A stretch of 41,713 bases of DNA. It comes from a virus (taxonomy: Duplodnaviria > Heunggongvirae > Uroviricota > Caudoviricetes). This document shows positions 8,422 to 27,116 of this stretch, one piece after another; positions within the stretch are counted from its first letter, which is position 1, and every line of letters begins with the position of its first letter. A program made the translations under genes and the position numbers. Location of the stretch: the IMG/VR virus record IMGVR_UViG_2778261064_000003, positions 1-41,713 of that record; one strand, written 5' to 3'. A model generated the notes under the pieces. That model worked only from the letters and a program-made list of their open reading frames with translations. It ran no database searches and had not been told where the DNA came from.

Positions 8422-9897
8422 TTAAACTCTGAACTGAATCAGGCCTGCCAGCACACGCAGCTGGTTCACCAGATTCGGGTGGCAGATAAAGTTCAGGCGG
8501 TTTTTATCGCTGCTGTCGCGTGTCACCTGAAGCGTGTCCCTGTAATCGCTGAAGTTCTCCACAAGGCCTGCCGGGATAAGTTCGGTCTGGCAGATATCCA
8601 GCAGCTCTGCGGTGCACAGCTTCGGCGTCATCACCGGCTGCCCCGCATCCAGCGAGTCCAGCACGTCATCATCCGCCAGCTTGTGGCGCGGATAACGGTT
8701 CGAGAAACGGTTTTTGATGATGTAACGGATACGGCCCAGCGTGGCGGGCGACTGCACATCAAGGTACGACACATCCGCATCACCGTACTGATTAACCCGG
8801 TACATGGTGATTTCACGCTCTATGCAGACGTTATCCCCGGCGTCCACCATGTGCGTGGCAATGCCGTCATGCAGCAGCAGGTTACGTTCCGGCATATCCC
8901 AGCGAACATTACGCGCAGGCGGCAGAATGCCGGTCAGGACCAGCGTCTGAAGCGGACGCGCCGGGTCAATGGCAAGGTGATACGCTGCCGTTGCGCCGTA
9001 TGACGCGGCCCACATCCACGCCGGGTGCGGTGACAGGTTGGTGCCAATACAGCTAATCAGCCAGTCATTGCGGGTTTCACCAAACGTGCCTGTCTCGCCG
9101 TGCGTGCCACGAAACGCCGTCCATAGCTGCGCTTCCATCATCCTGAGCGGCCCCCAGCGGTTCAGCAGTTCATCACGCAGGGTGTTCAGGCTTTGCGTGT
9201 CGGTGAACGGGGCGATGATATCGGTAAACCACTCCGGGCCGATGGCCGCAACGGCGTCTGCCATTTCCGGTGTCCCGGTGCCGCCGGTAAACGCGGTTGC
9301 GGTCACCTTCACACCTGCCGGGAAGGCTTCACCGGTGTAGTAGTTCAGGCGAACGTCGGCACCGTTGCCGGTGACGCCGTGCCAGTTCACGGTCAGCTCC
9401 ACGGTATCCGTGGCATCATCCTTCACCGCAGCGGCCACCTGCGTGGCAGGCTTTTTCGTCACCGCATCAGCAATGGCTTTTGCAATGTTTTCTTTGGTAT
9501 CCCCGGCGCTCACGCCCACCTGAACGGAGACACCGTTAATCAGCAGAGCCACCGTTCCGGCCTCTGTTGCTGTCCCCAGCACGGTCAGCGTGGCTTTTGC
9601 GGCAGCGCCAACAGGTGCGGCAACCGGCATTGCCCAGGTTTCCGTGTACGTGTTGGCACGACGCAGTATTTTGAGCATTTCAGCCAGCATCGACCCTTTG
9701 CCATAAAGCTGCTCTGCCTGGCTGTCACTGGTGATGCGGGTCAGTGACAGGGCGTCTGCGCTGCCGGACGATACCGCATGGCCCATGACCAGAATTTTTC
9801 GGCTTTGCGCGGATGCACTGTCCAGCGCCTGTGAATTGTCAATATCGATCACGACGAGCGGGACGCGGATATCATCAGGAATTGAACCCAGCGACAT
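8422..9897 (-). CDS. Contractile tail sheath protein (Mu L-like)
   Basis: 491-aa ORF, size and position typical of myovirus sheath upstream of tube. Confidence 0.8.
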   Translation of the reverse strand: MSLGSIPDDIRVPLVVIDIDNSQALDSASAQSRKILVMGHAVSSGSADALSLTRITSDSQAEQLYGKGSMLAEMLKILRRANTYTETWAMPVAAPVGAAAKATLTVLGTATEAGTVALLINGVSVQVGVSAGDTKENIAKAIADAVTKKPATQVAAAVKDDATDTVELTVNWHGVTGNGADVRLNYYTGEAFPAGVKVTATAFTGGTGTPEMADAVAAIGPEWFTDIIAPFTDTQSLNTLRDELLNRWGPLRMMEAQLWTAFRGTHGETGTFGETRNDWLISCIGTNLSPHPAWMWAASYGATAAYHLAIDPARPLQTLVLTGILPPARNVRWDMPERNLLLHDGIATHMVDAGDNVCIEREITMYRVNQYGDADVSYLDVQSPATLGRIRYIIKNRFSNRYPRHKLADDDVLDSLDAGQPVMTPKLCTAELLDICQTELIPAGLVENFSDYRDTLQVTRDSSDKNRLNFICHPNLVNQLRVLAGLIQFRV

Positions 9898-12042: not shown

Positions 12043-12945
12043 TTATGCCGGGGTGGTGATGTACGGGCTGTCCACGATGTCCACATCCTTGTACCAGATG
12101 TTGGAATCGCCGCCGTTAACCAGCATGGCGTCAATGATGCGCTTCGCGTCCGCGCGGTTTCTCGGCCCCACCACAAGGGTGGTCGGGCGGATGCCCAGCG
12201 GTTCACCGTTGGTGGTCTTCATACCCAGCAGCAGATTGCTGGCCTTCTCGTAGTTCTCCGCTGTCAGTGCCGCACGGGAACCGACGGCGGTCTGCCAGAA
12301 GCCGAAGCCCGCATTGCAGCGACCGTCCACCCCGTAAAGGAACTCGTTATTCTTGAAGGTGTGCTCGCTGTTCAGATCATCCAGGGCTTCAAACTTAAAG
12401 GCGCGTCGCGTCTGCCAGATGATGGGTTTCAGTACCTGAGAATCATCAATCAGGAACCACGGTTCCCCCTGGTCTGATGCCGGGGTGCCGACAACGTTGC
12501 TGTATGTGCCGTCGCCCAGCGGGTGGTCTTCATCAAAGAAGTTCTGACCGTCAAAACACAGGGTGTTAAACCCGGCACACAGCAGGGGGTAACACAGCTT
12601 GTCCGGGAACTCCGACGTCTGGCGGCCATAGCGTTCAGCGATAATGCTGTACTGACCAATCTGTTCGTCTTCAATGTGTTCGCGTTTAACGCGGATCGAA
12701 CTTTCCCAGGTTTTGTTCGCAAGGGTGTAACCATAACCGTCCAGCGTTGCCATCTGACGGGCGCTGACCCATTCCTTAATCTCCGGTAAATCTTTCATCC
12801 AGCCGTAGGTATTGGAGGCGGACGAACTCGGGATTTCAGAGGCGATGCGCTGCCACTGTGGGGTGACACCACTCAGCCCACGGGTATAAGCGGCGCTCAG
12901 ACAGGTGGTCAGCGCGTGAAGGACTTCGGAAGTGACTGCTCCCAT
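12043..12945 (-). CDS. Major head subunit (Mu T-like)
   Basis: 300-aa ORF directly downstream of protease/scaffold gene, as in Mu. Confidence 0.75.
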   Translation of the reverse strand: MGAVTSEVLHALTTCLSAAYTRGLSGVTPQWQRIASEIPSSSASNTYGWMKDLPEIKEWVSARQMATLDGYGYTLANKTWESSIRVKREHIEDEQIGQYSIIAERYGRQTSEFPDKLCYPLLCAGFNTLCFDGQNFFDEDHPLGDGTYSNVVGTPASDQGEPWFLIDDSQVLKPIIWQTRRAFKFEALDDLNSEHTFKNNEFLYGVDGRCNAGFGFWQTAVGSRAALTAENYEKASNLLLGMKTTNGEPLGIRPTTLVVGPRNRADAKRIIDAMLVNGGDSNIWYKDVDIVDSPYITTPA

Positions 12946-13907
12946 CAGTTATTCTCCTGTTTAGGTTTAGCGGCGAGGAACTCTTCCCCGGTAATACCCA
13001 TGCTGCGGCACATCGCCAGTTCGGCGTCGGTCAGTGTCTGCGCGGGTTTATCCTTGCCCTGGCTGGGCTTGTCGTTGTTCACCAGCGGCTGTGCACCTCT
13101 GGTGTACTCCGCAAACTGTTTGCGGCCTTCTTCCGTACGGCAGGTGGCAAGGAACATGTCACGGTTTGCCGGGGCCACTTTTCCGGCCTCAATGGCCGCA
13201 TCCACAAGCGCTTCTGCTTCCTGCTCTGCCAGTTGCTGAAGGCGTTTTTCTGCGGTTTCGGCACGGTTCAGTGCCAGATTGTGGGTTTCCACCGGCACAA
13301 ACTTCGTCAGATCAGGTGTCTGTGCGCGGTTCAGCGCCACCTGTTCGTTCTCCTGAAGTTGTTTAATGGCGGCCACGGTATCGTCCACCGTGGCAGATTC
13401 AGCCAGCCCAAGCAGGCCGGTGATTTGCACAGGTACTGTCATCGGGTTTTTCTCCGTATTCAGTGCAGGAAAATCCAGGTTAGGTTTGTTGGTCAGCCCG
13501 ACGCTGGACAGGCGCGTCACCACACCGTCTGCGTCAAAGAAAAACGCCGGGCTGTAATAGCGGTAGCGGCGCTCGCTCAGCATCCAGCGGGCGGACTCGC
13601 TCCAGACAACACGCCCTTCAATGGTGCCGCTGTCCGTCACGCGCAGTTCTTCCACCCAGCCATACGCCGGGGCTTCATCACCGCGTTGCCCTTTAATTTC
13701 GGTGGCGTGTTCAATGTCCACCGGAATTTTGATGTCGGACGAACGGGTGACCACCTCATGCGGATTGTGGTTAATCCACGTCCGGCCATCGCGCCCGGTG
13801 AACTCACCCGCAGGGACGAGTTCGAGCCATTCCGGCAGTTGAGCCGGTGTCAGCTCAGGGATGGGTTCTGGCAGGGAAAAACACAGCGCCAGCAGTTCCG
13901 GTTGCAT
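12945..13907 (-). CDS. Head maturation protease/scaffold (Mu I-like)
   Basis: 320-aa ORF between F-like and major head genes; coiled-coil rich C-terminal half. Confidence 0.7.
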   Translation of the reverse strand: MQPELLALCFSLPEPIPELTPAQLPEWLELVPAGEFTGRDGRTWINHNPHEVVTRSSDIKIPVDIEHATEIKGQRGDEAPAYGWVEELRVTDSGTIEGRVVWSESARWMLSERRYRYYSPAFFFDADGVVTRLSSVGLTNKPNLDFPALNTEKNPMTVPVQITGLLGLAESATVDDTVAAIKQLQENEQVALNRAQTPDLTKFVPVETHNLALNRAETAEKRLQQLAEQEAEALVDAAIEAGKVAPANRDMFLATCRTEEGRKQFAEYTRGAQPLVNNDKPSQGKDKPAQTLTDAELAMCRSMGITGEEFLAAKPKQENN

Positions 13908-13956
13908 GTCAGTCTCCGTCGTTTGGGATTACCGCCGGTCAGTATGCGGAAGGCAG

Positions 13957-13980
13957 AAAAAAAGCCGGATTTACCGGCTT
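13957..13980 (-). terminator. Rho-independent terminator-like hairpin (minus-strand AAGCCGG-TAAAT-CCGGCTT followed by T7)
   Basis: Seen directly; located downstream of F-like gene and upstream of protease gene; identical copy at 21691..21714. Confidence 0.6.
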
Positions 13981-14120
13981 CACTGAAAACGGGGAAATAC
14001 CCCCTTCAAAACCCCTTCAAAAACGCCACAGCATCTTCAAAAACGTCAGAATGCACATTCACGCCATCAGAATAAAAAACGCGTTTCTGATGCGTTTCAG
14101 GGGGATTTACGGCGGGAGGG

Positions 14121-14885
14121 TTACTCACTGTCAAAACGGGCCTGTTTTGTCGCCAGCTGGCGCGCCAGCGCCTGCTCACGGTTTATGCCGGGATTGTAGT
14201 TCCAGCCCGGATCAATCCCTTCCGGCACATCTTCCTCTTCGCCCGTGCGTTTGTTCACCCAACGGACGGTCCGGATTTCCGGCGCTTCGGTGTGAATGGT
14301 GCCCTGTGCCGCCAGTTGCGCATATTCACCACGGCTGACCTGACGGGTGGTGCATTTGCAGCCCCAGCCATTAGGGGCGAAATGTGTCAGCCAGAACGGA
14401 TGATCAACCGGCAGACACAGACGCGCCCATTTCACATGCTCCGCCCGGTGCTCGCGGGATGGTCCCAGCTCGTAAATCAGATACGGCATGGCCCGCTTTG
14501 TCCGTTGGATGCGTTCCCACTGGCCCGCCGCGCGGGCGGTGCGCATGTTGGTGTCAAAAATCGTGCGGAGGCGGCGGTCACTGCCCAGCTGTACGGTGCG
14601 CCTTTCGCCTGTCAGCGGATCATCCATCTCCTGTACGCCCCACCATCTGCGTTTTATCAGCAGCGGTTGCAGCGCCTCCCGGAACTCGCTGAACGTCTGC
14701 CCGCTTTGCAGGGCGTCTTCCACAAGGGCTTTCACATCCGACAACAAATCCAGTTGCAGCATTTTTGCCACGGTGAAGCTGTTCCGGTGTTCTTCCCGCC
14801 ACACATCCCGGTAATCAAAACCGGGGCGCAGCTTCTTCGCCTTCAGCCACGCCAGCGCCTCTTTCGGGATGAGGGTTTCACGCAT
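14121..14885 (-). CDS. Head morphogenesis protein (Mu F, gp30-like)
   Basis: ORF downstream of portal; start set at MRETLIPKE (ATG 14885), which overlaps the portal stop. Confidence 0.6.
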   Translation of the reverse strand: MRETLIPKEALAWLKAKKLRPGFDYRDVWREEHRNSFTVAKMLQLDLLSDVKALVEDALQSGQTFSEFREALQPLLIKRRWWGVQEMDDPLTGERRTVQLGSDRRLRTIFDTNMRTARAAGQWERIQRTKRAMPYLIYELGPSREHRAEHVKWARLCLPVDHPFWLTHFAPNGWGCKCTTRQVSRGEYAQLAAQGTIHTEAPEIRTVRWVNKRTGEEEDVPEGIDPGWNYNPGINREQALARQLATKQARFDSE

Positions 14886-16449
14886 GACCGGTGTCCCCCA
14901 GCGCACGGGCCTTAAAGCACACCTCCGCCAGTTGCAGGGCAAAGTCGTCCGCGTTCAGCGTTTCCTGAAGCTCAGGCAGGCGTTTCAGAAAGTCATCAAA
15001 ACTGTCGCATTCCTGCGCCAGTGTCAGCACCGGGTTCGTGAACGCCTCGCCGGTTTTCTGCCAGTCACGCAGGGCATCATCCACCATCTGTGCCAGTTCG
15101 TCGGGGTGTTCCCGGTTCAGGGCGACGCGCTCGCGGTTCATCGCCATTTCACCTGACATTCCGGCAGAAACCGGATGCAGAATATCGGCCCCTTCATCCG
15201 GCTCAGCAAGACCGAACCGGTCCCGCAGCTCCGATTCCTGAACCCGCATCCCCCGGTCAATCAGCGGCACCAGAGCGTCTGTCAGCGCCTTCAGATCTTC
15301 CGCTTCACTGATACGCAGAACAACACGGGGATAGTGCGCCTGTGGCCCGTAGTTGGCCTCAATGTAGGGACGCACCAGATATTCATTCAGCGTGTTAGCC
15401 AGCTGCCGCGCGTCCCAGCGCACAATGTCCATGCGCACCTGATTGTGCACGTCCGCCTGTGAACGCGAACTGCCGTTATCCGTGGTCATGGTCTGCCCCA
15501 GTACGGCTTTACTGATTTGCGCATCACACCATTCCGCCATTTCACGGAACAGCGCGCCGCCGTTATTCCGGCTGGCGTTTTCCTGCATCTCCAGTTGCAT
15601 GGACTGCGGAATGGCACACCCGGCATCCGAGGCAATGGAGGCAATCGCATCAATCAGCACGCGGATTTGCTCCTCCGTGGCATTGGGGCCGTATTTCCCC
15701 ACCGTGACCGGAATACCGAATTTTTCCGCAAATGCCCACCAGTCGCGCACGGTATAGGATTTCAGCATGTACATTACCGCCACCAGACGGGCCAGACCGT
15801 TACGCAGCGGCAGACCGGATTTCAGGCGCGGCTGGTGAACAATGAATTTTCCCGGTGTCAGCGGTACGCCATCCACCGGCTCATCGTCCGTCAGCAGGCG
15901 GAACTGGCGCAGCGTGGGTTTTTCGGCTTTCAGAAAACGGGGATCAACCCACTCATAATCACGGGGCACCCAGTGGTTATTGCGGGTGTTCCACAGAATT
16001 TCACAGACCGCCACGCCTTTCCCCAGCCCGTCAAGCAGATCAAACATCAGCTCGGGGATTTGCGGCGCGGCCATCAGCTCACGGATGGCATCCGCCAGCT
16101 GCACATCGGCATCGTCGTCACTGGCGGCCACCACCACCGGTTCAATACCCGCCACCGTCAGCTTGCGGGTGCGCAGTACCGAGGCGTAATGCAAATCGCG
16201 TTCTTCCATCTCTTCGGCAAGGATAAAAAAATCACGCGTGATGCCGTCGGCGGCATTGCGCAGAATGCCTGCCAGCCTGCCGGGATTCAGCCCGGAAGCA
16301 ATGCTGATGCCCGGCGAGGCCGAGCGCACGCCAGCCTGATGCGGACGGGCCTGTATTTCATCGAGCGTCTCTTTTTTCAGCGTGTCTTCCTCACCGGTTG
16401 CCGGGTTCAGCAGACGGCGAACGGCCCCGGCCAGTTGTTTCAGGTTCAC
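14878..16449 (-). CDS. Portal protein (Mu gp29-like, DUF935 family)
   Basis: 523-aa ORF directly downstream of terminase large subunit. Confidence 0.8.
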   Translation of the reverse strand: MNLKQLAGAVRRLLNPATGEEDTLKKETLDEIQARPHQAGVRSASPGISIASGLNPGRLAGILRNAADGITRDFFILAEEMEERDLHYASVLRTRKLTVAGIEPVVVAASDDDADVQLADAIRELMAAPQIPELMFDLLDGLGKGVAVCEILWNTRNNHWVPRDYEWVDPRFLKAEKPTLRQFRLLTDDEPVDGVPLTPGKFIVHQPRLKSGLPLRNGLARLVAVMYMLKSYTVRDWWAFAEKFGIPVTVGKYGPNATEEQIRVLIDAIASIASDAGCAIPQSMQLEMQENASRNNGGALFREMAEWCDAQISKAVLGQTMTTDNGSSRSQADVHNQVRMDIVRWDARQLANTLNEYLVRPYIEANYGPQAHYPRVVLRISEAEDLKALTDALVPLIDRGMRVQESELRDRFGLAEPDEGADILHPVSAGMSGEMAMNRERVALNREHPDELAQMVDDALRDWQKTGEAFTNPVLTLAQECDSFDDFLKRLPELQETLNADDFALQLAEVCFKARALGDTGHA

Positions 16450-17981
16450 AGTAAACCTCCCTCATTTTTCAGACCGCGTGTCAGCCTCATCTGGCGGCGC
16501 GCGTTGCGTTCTTCCGGTTTCGCCGGGCGGTTCAGGCGGTGCAGTTCGTAACGGTGGCAGTCATCCTTGCTGGCAAGGAACCCCAGGAAAATGGCCACAG
16601 CGGCGTCGCCGTGACGTTTGTGACCGTCGCTGCCTCTGGTTCGTGAATCATCAATGCCGGGAACGCCACGCAGTAACTGAATGGCTCCGAGATCGTTTAT
16701 CACGTCTTCATGCTTCGGAAGGATCAGCTCATCATCTTCAAACGCTGCACGGAACCGGGGCATGTTTTCGCGGTAGAACGCCACGGACAGCATCACCTGT
16801 TCCACTTCATCGCCGTACCGCTCTGCCGCCTGTTCTGCCAGATACTGACCATTCCCCCGCGCATCCATTTTGATGCCGTCACGGCGGGGCAGACAATCGC
16901 AAAGCCAGAACAGCACCTGCTCCTGCTGTTTAAACGGCACATTGGCAAGTTCAACCAGGAACGGCACCTCGCGGGTGGTGTCATCGTTCACCGTCACCGG
17001 GGCCAGGACGGTCAGGTCACCCGAACGCGCAAAGTCTTCCCCCAGACAGTGGCGCAGGTTCTTCGGGAGTTTTTCCAGTTCAGGGCGCACCACCGTTTCC
17101 AGCCATTCCCGGATATCTGCCCGGCGCTGGCTTTCCGTCAGTGCGTTAAATTCCGGTGTGCCGGTAAAGCGCAACACTTTCCCGGTGCCACGGGCTGCAC
17201 GCTCACGCAGTGAGCGGGGGATATACGTGCCGCCGCCGTTTTTCGGGACGCAGTAATATTCCTCCAGTGCGTCTTCGCGGGTGGCGGTATTTCGCAGCAG
17301 GCCTTCTTTCCATTCCGCCTCGGCCTCCGGTGACCACACCATGCCGCGCACCTGACAGATACGCCGGTACAGCCCGTCATTGCAGGCGTCGTCCAGCGTG
17401 ATGGTGTGAATGCTGTAATCTTTTTTGCCCGCGCGGCTTTCCTGAATCAGCTGGTTAAACAGGTTGTCCACGCCGTCATGGGTGGAAATAAGGCGAATTT
17501 TGCCGCCCCATGTTTTCAGCGGCAGCACCGCCTTCAGCAGCTCGTCCAGTTTTTCATGGAACGCGGCCTCGTCGATGGTGGCATTCCCCTGCATCCCGCG
17601 AATGTTGCTCGGGTTGCTGGACAGTGCCTTGACCTTAAAACTGCTGGCGAAGTACACGACGAACGTCAGAATGTCCTTGTCTTCGTCGGTGATCACTTCC
17701 TCGCAGATTTCTTCCGCTGCCGCATTAAACGCTTTCGCCCACATCGCCACGGCCTCGATAAATTCGCGGGCCATCTCCTTGTTCGAACCGATATAAAAGT
17801 GATCGCGCCCGCCGTCTTCCTTCTTCAGCGATGCCGTCAGTGCCGCATCTGCCGCCTCCGCCCAGGTTAAACCGGTACGGCGGGATTTCTCGGCGATTTT
17901 CAGGTCGGCATCATCCGCCACCCAGCGTTTCTGATACGGCAGCAGAACATCATATTCACTGAACGTGTCCATCTGCGTCAT
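16446..17981 (-). CDS. Terminase large subunit (Mu gp28-like)
   Basis: 511-aa ORF upstream of portal; size and position typical. Confidence 0.8.
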   Translation of the reverse strand: MTQMDTFSEYDVLLPYQKRWVADDADLKIAEKSRRTGLTWAEAADAALTASLKKEDGGRDHFYIGSNKEMAREFIEAVAMWAKAFNAAAEEICEEVITDEDKDILTFVVYFASSFKVKALSSNPSNIRGMQGNATIDEAAFHEKLDELLKAVLPLKTWGGKIRLISTHDGVDNLFNQLIQESRAGKKDYSIHTITLDDACNDGLYRRICQVRGMVWSPEAEAEWKEGLLRNTATREDALEEYYCVPKNGGGTYIPRSLRERAARGTGKVLRFTGTPEFNALTESQRRADIREWLETVVRPELEKLPKNLRHCLGEDFARSGDLTVLAPVTVNDDTTREVPFLVELANVPFKQQEQVLFWLCDCLPRRDGIKMDARGNGQYLAEQAAERYGDEVEQVMLSVAFYRENMPRFRAAFEDDELILPKHEDVINDLGAIQLLRGVPGIDDSRTRGSDGHKRHGDAAVAIFLGFLASKDDCHRYELHRLNRPAKPEERNARRQMRLTRGLKNEGGLL

Positions 17982-21039: not shown

Positions 21040-21636
21040 TCACCCCCGCGTGGCGGACATGATGCCCAGAGGGGTATCGATGATTTCCAGACAGGCGTCG
21101 GTCAGCTTTTCCATGCGGTTAAACCAGCCGTTCAGGTATTTGCCCTGGGCGGGTTTGGATTTGATGATGTCGGCATAAAAGCGGGAACGACGGACAATGC
21201 AGCGGGCCAGCAGCCAGTCAGGGGTGGACTGGCTCACGGCCTTACGGGTACGGGGGCCGATGATGCTGTCAGCATCCACATCAGCGGCTTCCTGCAAAAT
21301 CCTGATGGCTTTTTTAACGCCATGCTGAACCGCCGCATCGAACACAAACATCGCCACGCCATCAGGCCACTGGTCACATCCGGCAGGCAGCCAGTAATCG
21401 CGCCAGTAAATCTGCGCAACCTGTTCGCGGGTTAAATCCCTGATGCGGGTATCCGGTTTGCCGTCGCCGTTGACATCGGTTTGGCCGTCAATCACACCGT
21501 CGCGGCGGTCAGAAATGCCGTATTTGGTTTCGCCGCCACGGTCAGTGGGGTCATTGACATAGACGCCTTCGATATCGGGACGCAGAATGAAATTCAGCGC
21601 ATGTTCAAAAGCCGGGGAGAATTTTTGATTTACCAT
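21040..21636 (-). CDS. Peptidoglycan hydrolase (GH108-like N-terminal domain with peptidoglycan-binding C-terminal region)
   Basis: 198 aa; I recognise the sequence pattern as the GH108 / PG-binding lysin family, and it sits at the lys position downstream of the Mor/C-like activator. Confidence 0.65.
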   Translation of the reverse strand: MVNQKFSPAFEHALNFILRPDIEGVYVNDPTDRGGETKYGISDRRDGVIDGQTDVNGDGKPDTRIRDLTREQVAQIYWRDYWLPAGCDQWPDGVAMFVFDAAVQHGVKKAIRILQEAADVDADSIIGPRTRKAVSQSTPDWLLARCIVRRSRFYADIIKSKPAQGKYLNGWFNRMEKLTDACLEIIDTPLGIMSATRG

Positions 21637-21640
21637 AAAA

Positions 21641-21681
21641 GCACCATGAAGCAGATTTAAACGTGGTCTGCTTCATGGTGC
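21641..21681. promoter_or_regulatory. 15-bp perfect inverted repeat GCACCATGAAGCAGA-N11-TCTGCTTCATGGTGC immediately upstream of the lysin start
   Basis: Seen directly; ends 5 nt before the lysin start codon. Confidence 0.5.
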
Positions 21682-21690
21682 CGGAGGCAT

Positions 21691-21714
21691 AAAAAAAGCC
21701 GGATTTACCGGCTT
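21691..21714 (-). terminator. Rho-independent terminator-like hairpin, second copy of the element at 13957..13980
   Basis: Seen directly: identical 24-nt sequence AAAAAAAGCCGGATTTACCGGCTT (plus strand), with about 35 nt near-identical including flanks. Confidence 0.6.
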
Positions 21715-21720
21715 CATTGA

Positions 21721-22170
21721 TTAAGGGCGTCGTGGCGGACGACGAACGGGGTGAGGCAGGTTCGGGGAGTGGTAAAACAAATCCGGCTGGTATTTATTAC
21801 GCTCCAGACGCCGCATCCGTTTGATGGCCTTGTAGACGGTTTTATACGTCACTCCGTAACGCTGAACCAGTTCAGGAATATTATGGCCGTTAAAATCACG
21901 CCAGATACGCATATCCCGGACAAGATTCTCCAGAATATTCCCCCTCGGAACATAAACCTGCATCCCGCCGATATGGCGACAAATCGCCACAACCAGCTCA
22001 AGGGAATGGGCAGGGTCTGCGCCAATCCGGGCCAGCTCTTTACGCAGCAGTGCGTTCAGTTCAGAAAGTAACGCCGGATAAGCGGTGTTTTCCTGGTAAT
22101 CATGAAGGTATTCCAGAACGCTGTCGTCCCGAAGGTCTTCGAATAAATCCTGCTCTTTCATCTGTTTCAT
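21721..22170 (-). CDS. Mor/C-family transcriptional activator
   Basis: 149-aa ORF just upstream of the lysin gene; size and C-terminal basic helix-turn-helix-like region as in Mu Mor/C. Confidence 0.6.
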   Translation of the reverse strand: MKQMKEQDLFEDLRDDSVLEYLHDYQENTAYPALLSELNALLRKELARIGADPAHSLELVVAICRHIGGMQVYVPRGNILENLVRDMRIWRDFNGHNIPELVQRYGVTYKTVYKAIKRMRRLERNKYQPDLFYHSPNLPHPVRRPPRRP

Positions 22171-26162: not shown

Positions 26163-27116
26163 TTACTGCCAGTTCAGCAACTTAGGGTTGCTGTAAGCCT
26201 CCTTAAAAGCCGCTTTTATGTGACTTTTATTCAGGGATGAACCAGCACCTTTCGCCGCCAGCCACGCATGATTCAGTGTGTGAGTTAATACACGCAATCC
26301 CCCGGGCTTTTCGGCAACCCTCATCAGCAGATCCAGCTCATCTTCCTGTGTTACTCCCCATGCTTTGGCTACAGCCATCACATCAGTCTTTTTCACTTTG
26401 CGCAGTTGTTTTGTCATGGCAAAACGGCTGAACAGACGAGCCAGTTCATCAGTCCCACGACGGGTGGCATCCGCCATCTGTTTCGGGTTGCCAATTAAAA
26501 CCATCCCCACGCCAGTAGCATCCTGAATGGCGCGTAATTGCTCCAGACCATCCACACTTAAGTGGTCAGCTTCATCAATAATCAGCAGGGGGTTAACACG
26601 ACCACTGGTTTCTTTACCACCGCCCAGTTTTCTGCGAATGGCGCGGGTTATATTCCCCTTATTTCTTCCCGGATTATTAATTTCCAGCGCATATGCTATT
26701 TCAAGGAGGCATTCAGTTACGCTCGAATGTGCCGGAGCAAGCGTCACCATCCAGGCATTAGCTGTCTTGCGACAATATTCCCGTGCAGCAAAAGTTTTGC
26801 CGACACCCGGTACGCCAACAACAACACTGATAATCCCGAGTGAGCGCACTGTTTTAAACAGCTCATGCAAATCACAAAATGTCTGGGTCTTCACAACACC
26901 AGGGGCACCTGACAAATTCTGTCCCTTAAGCCAGACCTGATACCATTTCTGCAATTTGTCATGCATACCTTCGACATTACCTTTGTACTCTCCTTTACGC
27001 AGAGCCGAGAGTGTTGCCGGAGACATTCCTGCTTCATCAGCAATATCTTCCTGGGACTTGTCGCCCTCGTTAATCAACGTGTTAATAGTGTTGAAAACAT
27101 CATCAATATCAGTCAT
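26163..27116 (-). CDS. DNA transposition ATPase (MuB-like target DNA activator)
   Basis: 317 aa with Walker A motif GVPGVGKT; directly downstream of the transposase. Confidence 0.85.
   Translation of the reverse strand: MTDIDDVFNTINTLINEGDKSQEDIADEAGMSPATLSALRKGEYKGNVEGMHDKLQKWYQVWLKGQNLSGAPGVVKTQTFCDLHELFKTVRSLGIISVVVGVPGVGKTFAAREYCRKTANAWMVTLAPAHSSVTECLLEIAYALEINNPGRNKGNITRAIRRKLGGGKETSGRVNPLLIIDEADHLSVDGLEQLRAIQDATGVGMVLIGNPKQMADATRRGTDELARLFSRFAMTKQLRKVKKTDVMAVAKAWGVTQEDELDLLMRVAEKPGGLRVLTHTLNHAWLAAKGAGSSLNKSHIKAAFKEAYSNPKLLNWQ

Follow-up and report, generated by a model that had tools for sequence, protein, structure and literature searches.

The closest described counterpart of the locus analysed here is the middle promoter Pm of bacteriophage Mu, which is the sequence immediately after the stop codon of mor (AAAGCCGGTTAATCCGGCTTTTTTTACGTCC; longer extract, AAAGCCGGTTAATCCGGCTTTTTTTACGTCCTCAATATCCTG). 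The Mor element of Mu consists of two 5-bp inverted repeats around a G/C-rich hexanucleotide (PMC4390567, PMC4287176), the bases of Pm are G at -57, T at -56, and AAA at -55 to -53 (PMC4390567), and on its bottom strand the permanganate-sensitive T's lie at -12, -4, -1, +1, +3, and +4 (PMC4287176). The C-dependent late promoters of Mu are likewise activator-dependent, with a -10 hexamer and without a -35 (PMC2582627), and C sites are of the type TTAT-N5-6-ATAA (PMC12867686). In phage T4, read-through RNA of the lysozyme gene e pairs the ribosome-binding site of that gene, and the late promoter lies in the 5' strand of the pairing, which is absent from the late mRNA (PMC3014915). The Pm-type element is well characterised in Mu; in our literature search, no open-access description of Pm-type boxes in C-less Mu-like prophages was found. 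Here we describe two copies of a sequence in such a prophage, each of which is, to judge from its sequence, with high probability a Pm-type, Mor-dependent sigma-70 promoter whose activator/-35 region holds the hairpin of an intrinsic terminator, and both of which appear to be an expected variation on Mu biology.

The window, by which we mean the whole stretch of viral DNA that was analysed (41,713 nt; IMG/VR record IMGVR_UViG_2778261064_000003), contains the exact 24-mer AAAAAAAGCCGGATTTACCGGCTT twice, at positions 13957-13980 and 21691-21714 on the plus strand. No third match was found in the window at three or fewer mismatches, and 100 dinucleotide shuffles gave an expectation of 0. The first-pass annotation had described about 35 nt as near-identical, which is right and slightly conservative: positions 13951-13984 and 21685-21718 agree, ungapped, at 32 of 34 positions, and over 50 nt (13940-13989 versus 21674-21723) the two copies, here called A and B, agree at 41. 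Read on the minus strand, both copies have, as had also been noticed, a hairpin with a U-tract, made up of an 8-bp stem (five G-C pairs), a 5-nt loop, and T7. Pfam searches confirmed the neighbours proposed for them, an F-like gene at copy A and a Mor-family gene at copy B, and gave the order along the minus strand as GemA, the Mor-family protein, copy B, a GH108 endolysin, the large terminase, the portal, the F-like protein, copy A, protease I, and the major head protein gpT. The long genes of the region are all on the minus strand, and relatives of the F-like gene in RefSeq are labelled phage minor head or head morphogenesis protein. The proposal of a regulatory cassette shared by two boundaries of late operons holds, and the anatomy of the cassette is that of an intrinsic terminator. 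The features of the locus are collected in Table 1.

Table 1. Positions of the module copies, their parts, and neighbouring genes in the window
Feature	Position	Strand	Support
Copy B, whole conserved module (Pm ~-56 to -7), predicted promoter of the lysis/packaging operon	21674..21723	-	Module HMM E = 3e-18; 37/50 to Mu Pm
Copy B predicted Mor-binding element, AATGA-AGCCGG-TAAAT, corresponding to -51 to -36 of Mu Pm	21703..21718	-	13/16 to Mu element
Copy B hairpin, stem GAAGCCGG/CCGGCUUU, loop UAAAU	21695..21715	-	-12.6 kcal/mol, z -3.97
Copy B T-tract, with hairpin the predicted intrinsic terminator for the early operon ending in mor	21691-21697	-	
Copy B -10 hexamer, CACCAT, at the offset of Mu Pm TATCCT (-13 to -8)	21675..21680	-	Ungapped alignment register
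Copy A, whole conserved module, predicted promoter of the head/tail operon from protease I	13940..13989	-	Module HMM E = 3.3e-18; 37/50 to Mu Pm
Copy A predicted Mor-binding element, AGTGA-AGCCGG-TAAAT	13969..13984	-	14/16 to Mu element
Copy A hairpin	13961..13981	-	-12.6 kcal/mol centroid
Copy A T-tract, with hairpin the predicted intrinsic terminator closing the lysis/packaging operon	13957-13963	-	
Copy A -10 hexamer, CATACT	13941..13946	-	Same ungapped offset as Mu TATCCT
Endolysin leader 16-bp hairpin	21640..21682	-	Folding
Leader 5' arm, containing the -10 hexamer and running to the predicted start point	21667-21682	-	
Leader 3' arm, including the ribosome-binding site GGUG (21642-21645)	21640-21655	-	
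Mor-family activator gene, sole Mor/C-family gene of the window	21721..22170	-	Pfam Mor 3.6e-30
GH108 endolysin, first gene of the copy B operon	21040..21636	-	Pfam Glyco_hydro_108 + PG_binding_3
F-like minor head gene, last in the operon upstream of copy A	14121..14942	-	Pfam Phage_Mu_F 9e-14
Protease/scaffold I, first gene downstream of copy A	12945..13907	-	Pfam Mu-like_Pro 2e-44
Lambda-like gpZ	30751-31329		
Lambda-like capsid E	32146-33198		
Lambda-like S49 protease	33569-35023		
Lambda-type portal	34869-36470		
Lambda-like gpA terminase	36670-38595		

We set the register of Mu Pm by the permanganate positions, the bases given in PMC4390567, and primer MLK7 (+10 to -9). Only a start point at Mu position 9224 (L002 1225) fits all of these data, which places the -10 hexamer TATCCT at -13 to -8; in this fixed register the Mor element of Mu is AGTAA-AGCCGG-TTAAT at -51 to -36. 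A start point near L002 1232, at the second GTAAA, was excluded by the permanganate positions and the primer. Compared ungapped with Pm, both window copies match at 37 of 50 positions overall and at 12 of 12 in the right arm and T-tract, and the AGCCGG spacer is identical. The likeness thus comprises a near-same sequence from -56 to -24 with its spacer and T7, an equal offset of the -10 hexamer, in which both copies share with Mu an A at position 2 and a T at position 6, and a mor stop codon that stands in the same register to the box in copy B and in Mu. Further, an HMM of 46 module sequences, from which Mu was excluded, finds Pm at E = 3.6e-12 and has no other match in 11 kb of Mu, Plys and PI included. 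Hairpin and promoter overlap in such a way that the left arm of the hairpin coincides with the spacer of the Mor site and the loop with the right half-site of that site, and the right arm and T-tract span -35 to -24. The same overlap is annotated in the curated GenBank entry for Mu, in which a predicted terminator (9179-9200) is nested within a "middle promoter, activated by Mor" (9163-9233).

The copies differ from Pm in their half-sites, which are TAAAT on the right and A[G/A]TGA on the left, as against TTAAT and AGTAA in Mu, and the half-site dyad of the window copies (3 of 5) is poorer than that of Mu (4 of 5). They also differ in setting, because the single copy of Mu drives a middle operon ending in C, whereas the two copies of the window stand before endolysin and packaging genes and before protease and head genes. 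Both -10 hexamers are weak, with 3-4 of 6 matches to TATAAT, and the -35 region of both copies is the T7 tract, without a -35 hexamer. At the position of the proximal UP subsite (-57 to -52), copy A has TTTTCA, copy B TAATCA, and Mu GTAAAC, all A/T-rich and not alike. The predicted start points, which for a Pm-type promoter are expected about 43.5 bp beyond the centre of the Mor element, are near 21667 for copy B and near 13933 for copy A; the latter leaves ~26 nt to the ATG of protease I (13907).

Relatives were gathered by an exact search of IMG/VR with a 20-mer core (64 stretches), a protease-anchored search (28 loci), and a degenerate search with one genome per species (86 stretches). In the IMG/VR loci found by exact match, the core is invariant by construction, and the evidence lies in the flanking features and in the independently anchored loci L021-L030. 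The hosts of the C-less Mu-like family are Enterobacterales (Escherichia, Klebsiella, Raoultella, Kluyvera, Serratia, Brenneria, Trabulsiella, and Pluralibacter). Across these relatives, the module lies 47-67 nt upstream of the GH108 endolysin start in 39 contexts and ~50 nt upstream of the protease I start in 23; the gene downstream of the endolysin-side module is constant, whereas the gene upstream varies, being either mor or an unrelated inserted ORF. Extra ORFs of 106-194 aa between mor and the module are present in L004, L005, L032, L033, L038-L040, L044, L045, and others; they carry a signal peptide or transmembrane segments, belong to several unrelated families, and look like moron cargo. 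A hexamer of the form [C/T/A]AnnnTG is found at the Pm offset in 98% of Mu-like contexts compared with 0% of control terminators, and TG at -2/-1 in 88% compared with 4%, where the controls are fetched stretches without Mu-like proteins, among which a few short Mu-like loci are perhaps misassigned, an error that would only weaken the contrast. On the endolysin side, the conserved GCAC immediately before and within the -10 hexamer also pairs with the ribosome-binding site, and part of its conservation could serve RNA structure rather than RNA polymerase.

The hairpin is kept in the endolysin-side copy of every relative examined. On the protease side, the stem of L021 is preserved by a compensatory C/G swap and its T-tract is weak, and in L022-L030, whose protease is 60% identical, the copy (CAGTGAAGCCGGTTAATCCACCTGAGTCCCCGTTTCCCCCCACACTG) keeps the Mor element CAGTGAAGCCGGTTAATCC and CACACT and has lost the right arm and T-tract, although the endolysin-side copy of the same phages retains hairpin and T-tract. 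Because the hairpin is lost at the protease side in some relatives, termination there is probably optional. The two sites also carry signatures of their own: AGTG is present in 18 of 18 distinct protease-side contexts and in none of 36 endolysin-side contexts, at protein identities of 54-100%. Within a phage, both sites carry one and the same loop variant, either TAAAT or TTAAT (34 of 34 loci). Because the site-specific signatures recur across diverged phages, the duplication appears to be old and the sites orthologous between phages, and we read the two copies as old paralogous sites that are kept alike by function.

As RNA, the stem, loop, and U7 of the copies fold at -12.6 kcal/mol (z -3 to -4), and the Mu counterpart at -12.2. 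From this modelling, the hairpin of copy B very likely ends the early operon, and that of copy A in the window very likely ends the lysis/packaging operon as well; we infer termination efficiency at both. The early transcripts of Mu presumably end at the Pm hairpin, at a terminator called t9.2, for which our literature search gave no match. The hairpin AAGCCGGT[T/A]AATCCGGCTTTTT with its T-tract is also found in chromosomes of Bacteroidota, Spirochaetes, and Pantoea. These ordinary terminators share the exact hairpin and T-tract with the module but differ from it in having A-rich upstream flanks and in lacking Mu genes, the TG at -2/-1, and the hexamer at the Pm offset, and their sequences indicate convergent terminators outside the module family. 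The exact 23-nt hairpin with its T-run was found ~65 times in unrelated bacteria (L096-L181), Ignavibacteria and a conserved chromosomal site of Pantoea included.

The label of terminator, under which the repeat was first described, is borne out for the hairpin and U-tract and falls short for the whole, because the conserved block passes the hairpin on both sides and matches Mu Pm from about -56 to -7. Were the copies plain Rho-independent terminators, duplicated at two operon ends and with the late promoters elsewhere or replaced by read-through, their canonical intrinsic anatomy, the prediction by TransTermHP of a terminator at the Mu counterpart, and the ordinary terminator-like sites with an identical hairpin in many unrelated bacteria would all be accounted for. 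However, those same-hairpin controls are without the flanking features, and in the module conservation reaches ~8 nt upstream and 21 nt downstream of hairpin and T-tract, in the register of Mu Pm. Moreover, the module goes with the downstream gene, and the box is kept in L022-L030 without hairpin or T-tract. Only 50-55 nt separate the T-tract from the start codon at each copy, so there is no room for a separate promoter. The promoter that the first-pass annotation had proposed to look for after each copy was not found by a consensus sigma-70 scan downstream of either, and the copy itself reads as the promoter. Overall, we consider it improbable that the copies are terminators and nothing else.

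Recombinational exchange had been raised as another possibility, and in the form of recent recombination or gene conversion, which would make the copies identical without a shared function, it fits the observations that the copies are closer to each other (41 of 50) than to Mu (37 of 50) and that the loop variant is concordant at the two sites in all 34 loci. The concordance would arise just as well if the two sites followed a single Mor protein, and what speaks against recent exchange is AGTG at one site versus AATG at the other before AAGCC, a difference that is site-specific across phages whose flanking proteins are 54-66% identical and that accompanies differing downstream blocks; further, the right halves in L022-L030 have fully diverged, whereas the Mor element is identical. 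We therefore regard this explanation as very improbable. Least credible of all is that the dyad serves another protein (for example gyrase, IHF, Ner, or the repressor) or is a host repeat such as REP, even though the sequence is palindromic and copy A adjoins a region homologous to the strong gyrase site of Mu. Copy B lies away from the gyrase-site-like region, the footprinted Mor site of Mu is matched almost exactly by the box, and Rfam gave no match to the module at threshold, with only a sub-threshold hit to sroD over the hairpin (E = 0.18; 25 bits compared with a gathering score of 50). A host repeat, which the first-pass annotation had named as a finding that would refute its reading, is at odds with the distribution of the motif, which is confined to prophage-bearing E. 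coli genomes: a 43-nt query around copy A matched 46 of 5426 E. coli genomes, each at 2, 4, or 6 places, which amounts to two for every prophage copy, with no match outside the prophage among the 5426, and the Mu-like prophage is present in ~50 of these complete genomes, STEC1575 and 06-00048 being examples of carriers. Pm-type promoters that overlap a terminator hairpin are thus the reading that we prefer for the two copies.

The protein that would act at such promoters is the Mor of the window, which shares 63% identity with Mu Mor and 32% with Mu C; no second Mor/C-family gene was found in the window by tblastn. Its recognition helix is TVYKAIKRMRRL, compared with TVYKAIRRMRRL in Mu Mor, and the helix TVYKAI[K/R]RMRRL is invariant in 42 relatives and Mu. 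The gap from mor to the endolysin gene is 85 nt, and the middle operon is absent. Because there is a single activator, which is Mor-like, and no C, Mor probably drives both operons directly, lysis and packaging from copy B and head and tail from copy A. In the mechanism that we propose, Mor would be made from the early transposition/replication operon and would bind the 16-bp element A[G/A]TGA-AGCCGG-TAAAT. Transcription would then start near 21667 and proceed into the endolysin, lysis, and packaging genes through F, and would start near 13933 and proceed into protease I, the major head protein, and onward. Upstream RNA running through the module would be stopped by the hairpin and U7 at the end of the preceding operon, and the cassette would in this way insulate and restart transcription at both boundaries. 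In the absence of a C gene and a middle operon, the cascade would have two tiers (early, Mor, late) compared with three in Mu.

No further module copies, weaker ones included, were found ahead of the tail, baseplate, or com/mom genes, either in the window or in one complete relative; without a third copy, the head/tail operon would be very long or further promoters would have escaped recognition. In the complete relative, from E. coli STEC1575, com and mom lie at the right end, downstream of a cluster of GATC sites (L095 7373-7495); this element is without a Mor box upstream of com/mom and without a C gene. In an alignment of Mor proteins (L001-L169), arginine at AI[K/R]RMR occurs only with TTAAT loops (6 of 10, Mu included), and lysine occurs in all 33 phages with TAAAT loops plus 4 with TTAAT, which suggests only partial co-variation between this residue and the loop variant. 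The window Mor has DLF near its N terminus (residues 5-10), as in Mu Mor, and a C-terminal YQPDLF (residues 127-132) where Mu Mor has QPSLL. QPDLF is the C-terminal clamp-binding consensus reported for MuC and its family (PMC12867686), and its presence here would be in keeping with a Mor that acts in place of C.

Copies B and A occupy the same genomic positions, before the same downstream genes, as the Mu late promoters Plys and PI, respectively. In Mu, a terminator after C overlaps Plys, a likeness to copy B, and the order at PI is gyrase site, terminator, PI, and then gene I, a likeness to copy A. The difference is that Plys and PI have C-type sites, whereas the window has Mor-type boxes and no C gene. 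Between the F-like gene and copy A, the non-coding DNA (13985-14120, minus strand) aligns with the Mu G-I region that bears the strong gyrase site, and its phased repeats (GCGTTTTTGAAGGGGTTTTGAAGG, compared with GGGATTTTTAAACCGGTATTTAACGG in Mu) are conserved in all relatives and in Mu. A small hairpin at 13991-14004 followed by GTTTTC has the position of the predicted Mu terminator at 17908-17953. The Mu-like prophage ends near 30.3 kb, with transposase A at 27191-29278, B at 26163-27116, a Ner-like gene at 29281-29553, and the repressor at 29607-30242. From 30400 to 41713, the window holds the morphogenesis module of a lambda-like prophage around the Mu-like prophage, that is, a phage inserted in a phage.

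The leader of the endolysin gene holds a further predicted hairpin. In the window, the folding of the leader in read-through RNA is -43.4 kcal/mol (z -7.85), compared with -4.0 kcal/mol (z -0.09) in RNA from the predicted +1. Consistent values were obtained across relatives: in 31 distinct contexts the means are -21.9 kcal/mol for read-through RNA and -4.6 kcal/mol from the predicted +1, and 20 lineages whose stem sequences differ widely gave mean z values of -3.8 and +0.4, respectively. Of 338 bases predicted to pair with the 25 nt that precede the start codon, 291 are located upstream of the predicted +1. The protease-side leader hairpin of the window is weak (-7.3 kcal/mol), and we propose translational control for the endolysin side only. 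In the proposed mechanism, early RNA that leaks past the terminator would be untranslatable for endolysin, and Mor-initiated endolysin mRNA would be open; from these foldings, we put endolysin translation that depends on the start site at about an even chance. In the leader of Mu Pm (L002 1219-1249), an inverted repeat TGATGA (-6 to -1)/TCATCA overlaps the start codon of gene E18; its 5' arm lies just upstream of +1, and it is a weak 6-bp counterpart of the endolysin leader arrangement.

The arrangement resembles that of T4 gene e in that read-through RNA is predicted to hide the ribosome-binding site of a lysis enzyme, with the partner strand upstream of the start point. It differs in that the T4 promoter is a gp55 late promoter and that of the window a Mor/sigma-70 one, in that the phages and the sequences are unrelated, and in that the effect described here is a predicted one. 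A fuller reading, which we hold tentatively and rate somewhat below an even chance, is that one cassette does three jobs, terminating transcription, restarting it under Mor, and hiding the endolysin ribosome-binding site except in Mor-initiated mRNA, with Mor as the sole late activator, which might also couple late transcription to the sliding clamp, as has been reported for MuC. Within it, the leader would be a fail-safe against premature lysis in the style of T4 lysozyme, evolved independently.

The basic understanding of Mu regulation is unchanged by these findings. To label these sites terminators would hide two promoters, from which the lysis and morphogenesis genes of the prophage family are probably all switched on. 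The relatives also provide a natural mutagenesis series for recognition of the Mor site, in which TAAAT and TTAAT loops, boxes without a hairpin, and a compensatory stem swap are represented and through which the Mor element can be told apart from the terminator overlapping it. The predicted leader hairpin would offer a simple explanation of how endolysin synthesis from early read-through RNA is avoided. Overall, the results suggest that the three-tier cascade of Mu has collapsed to two tiers in many of its enterobacterial relatives.
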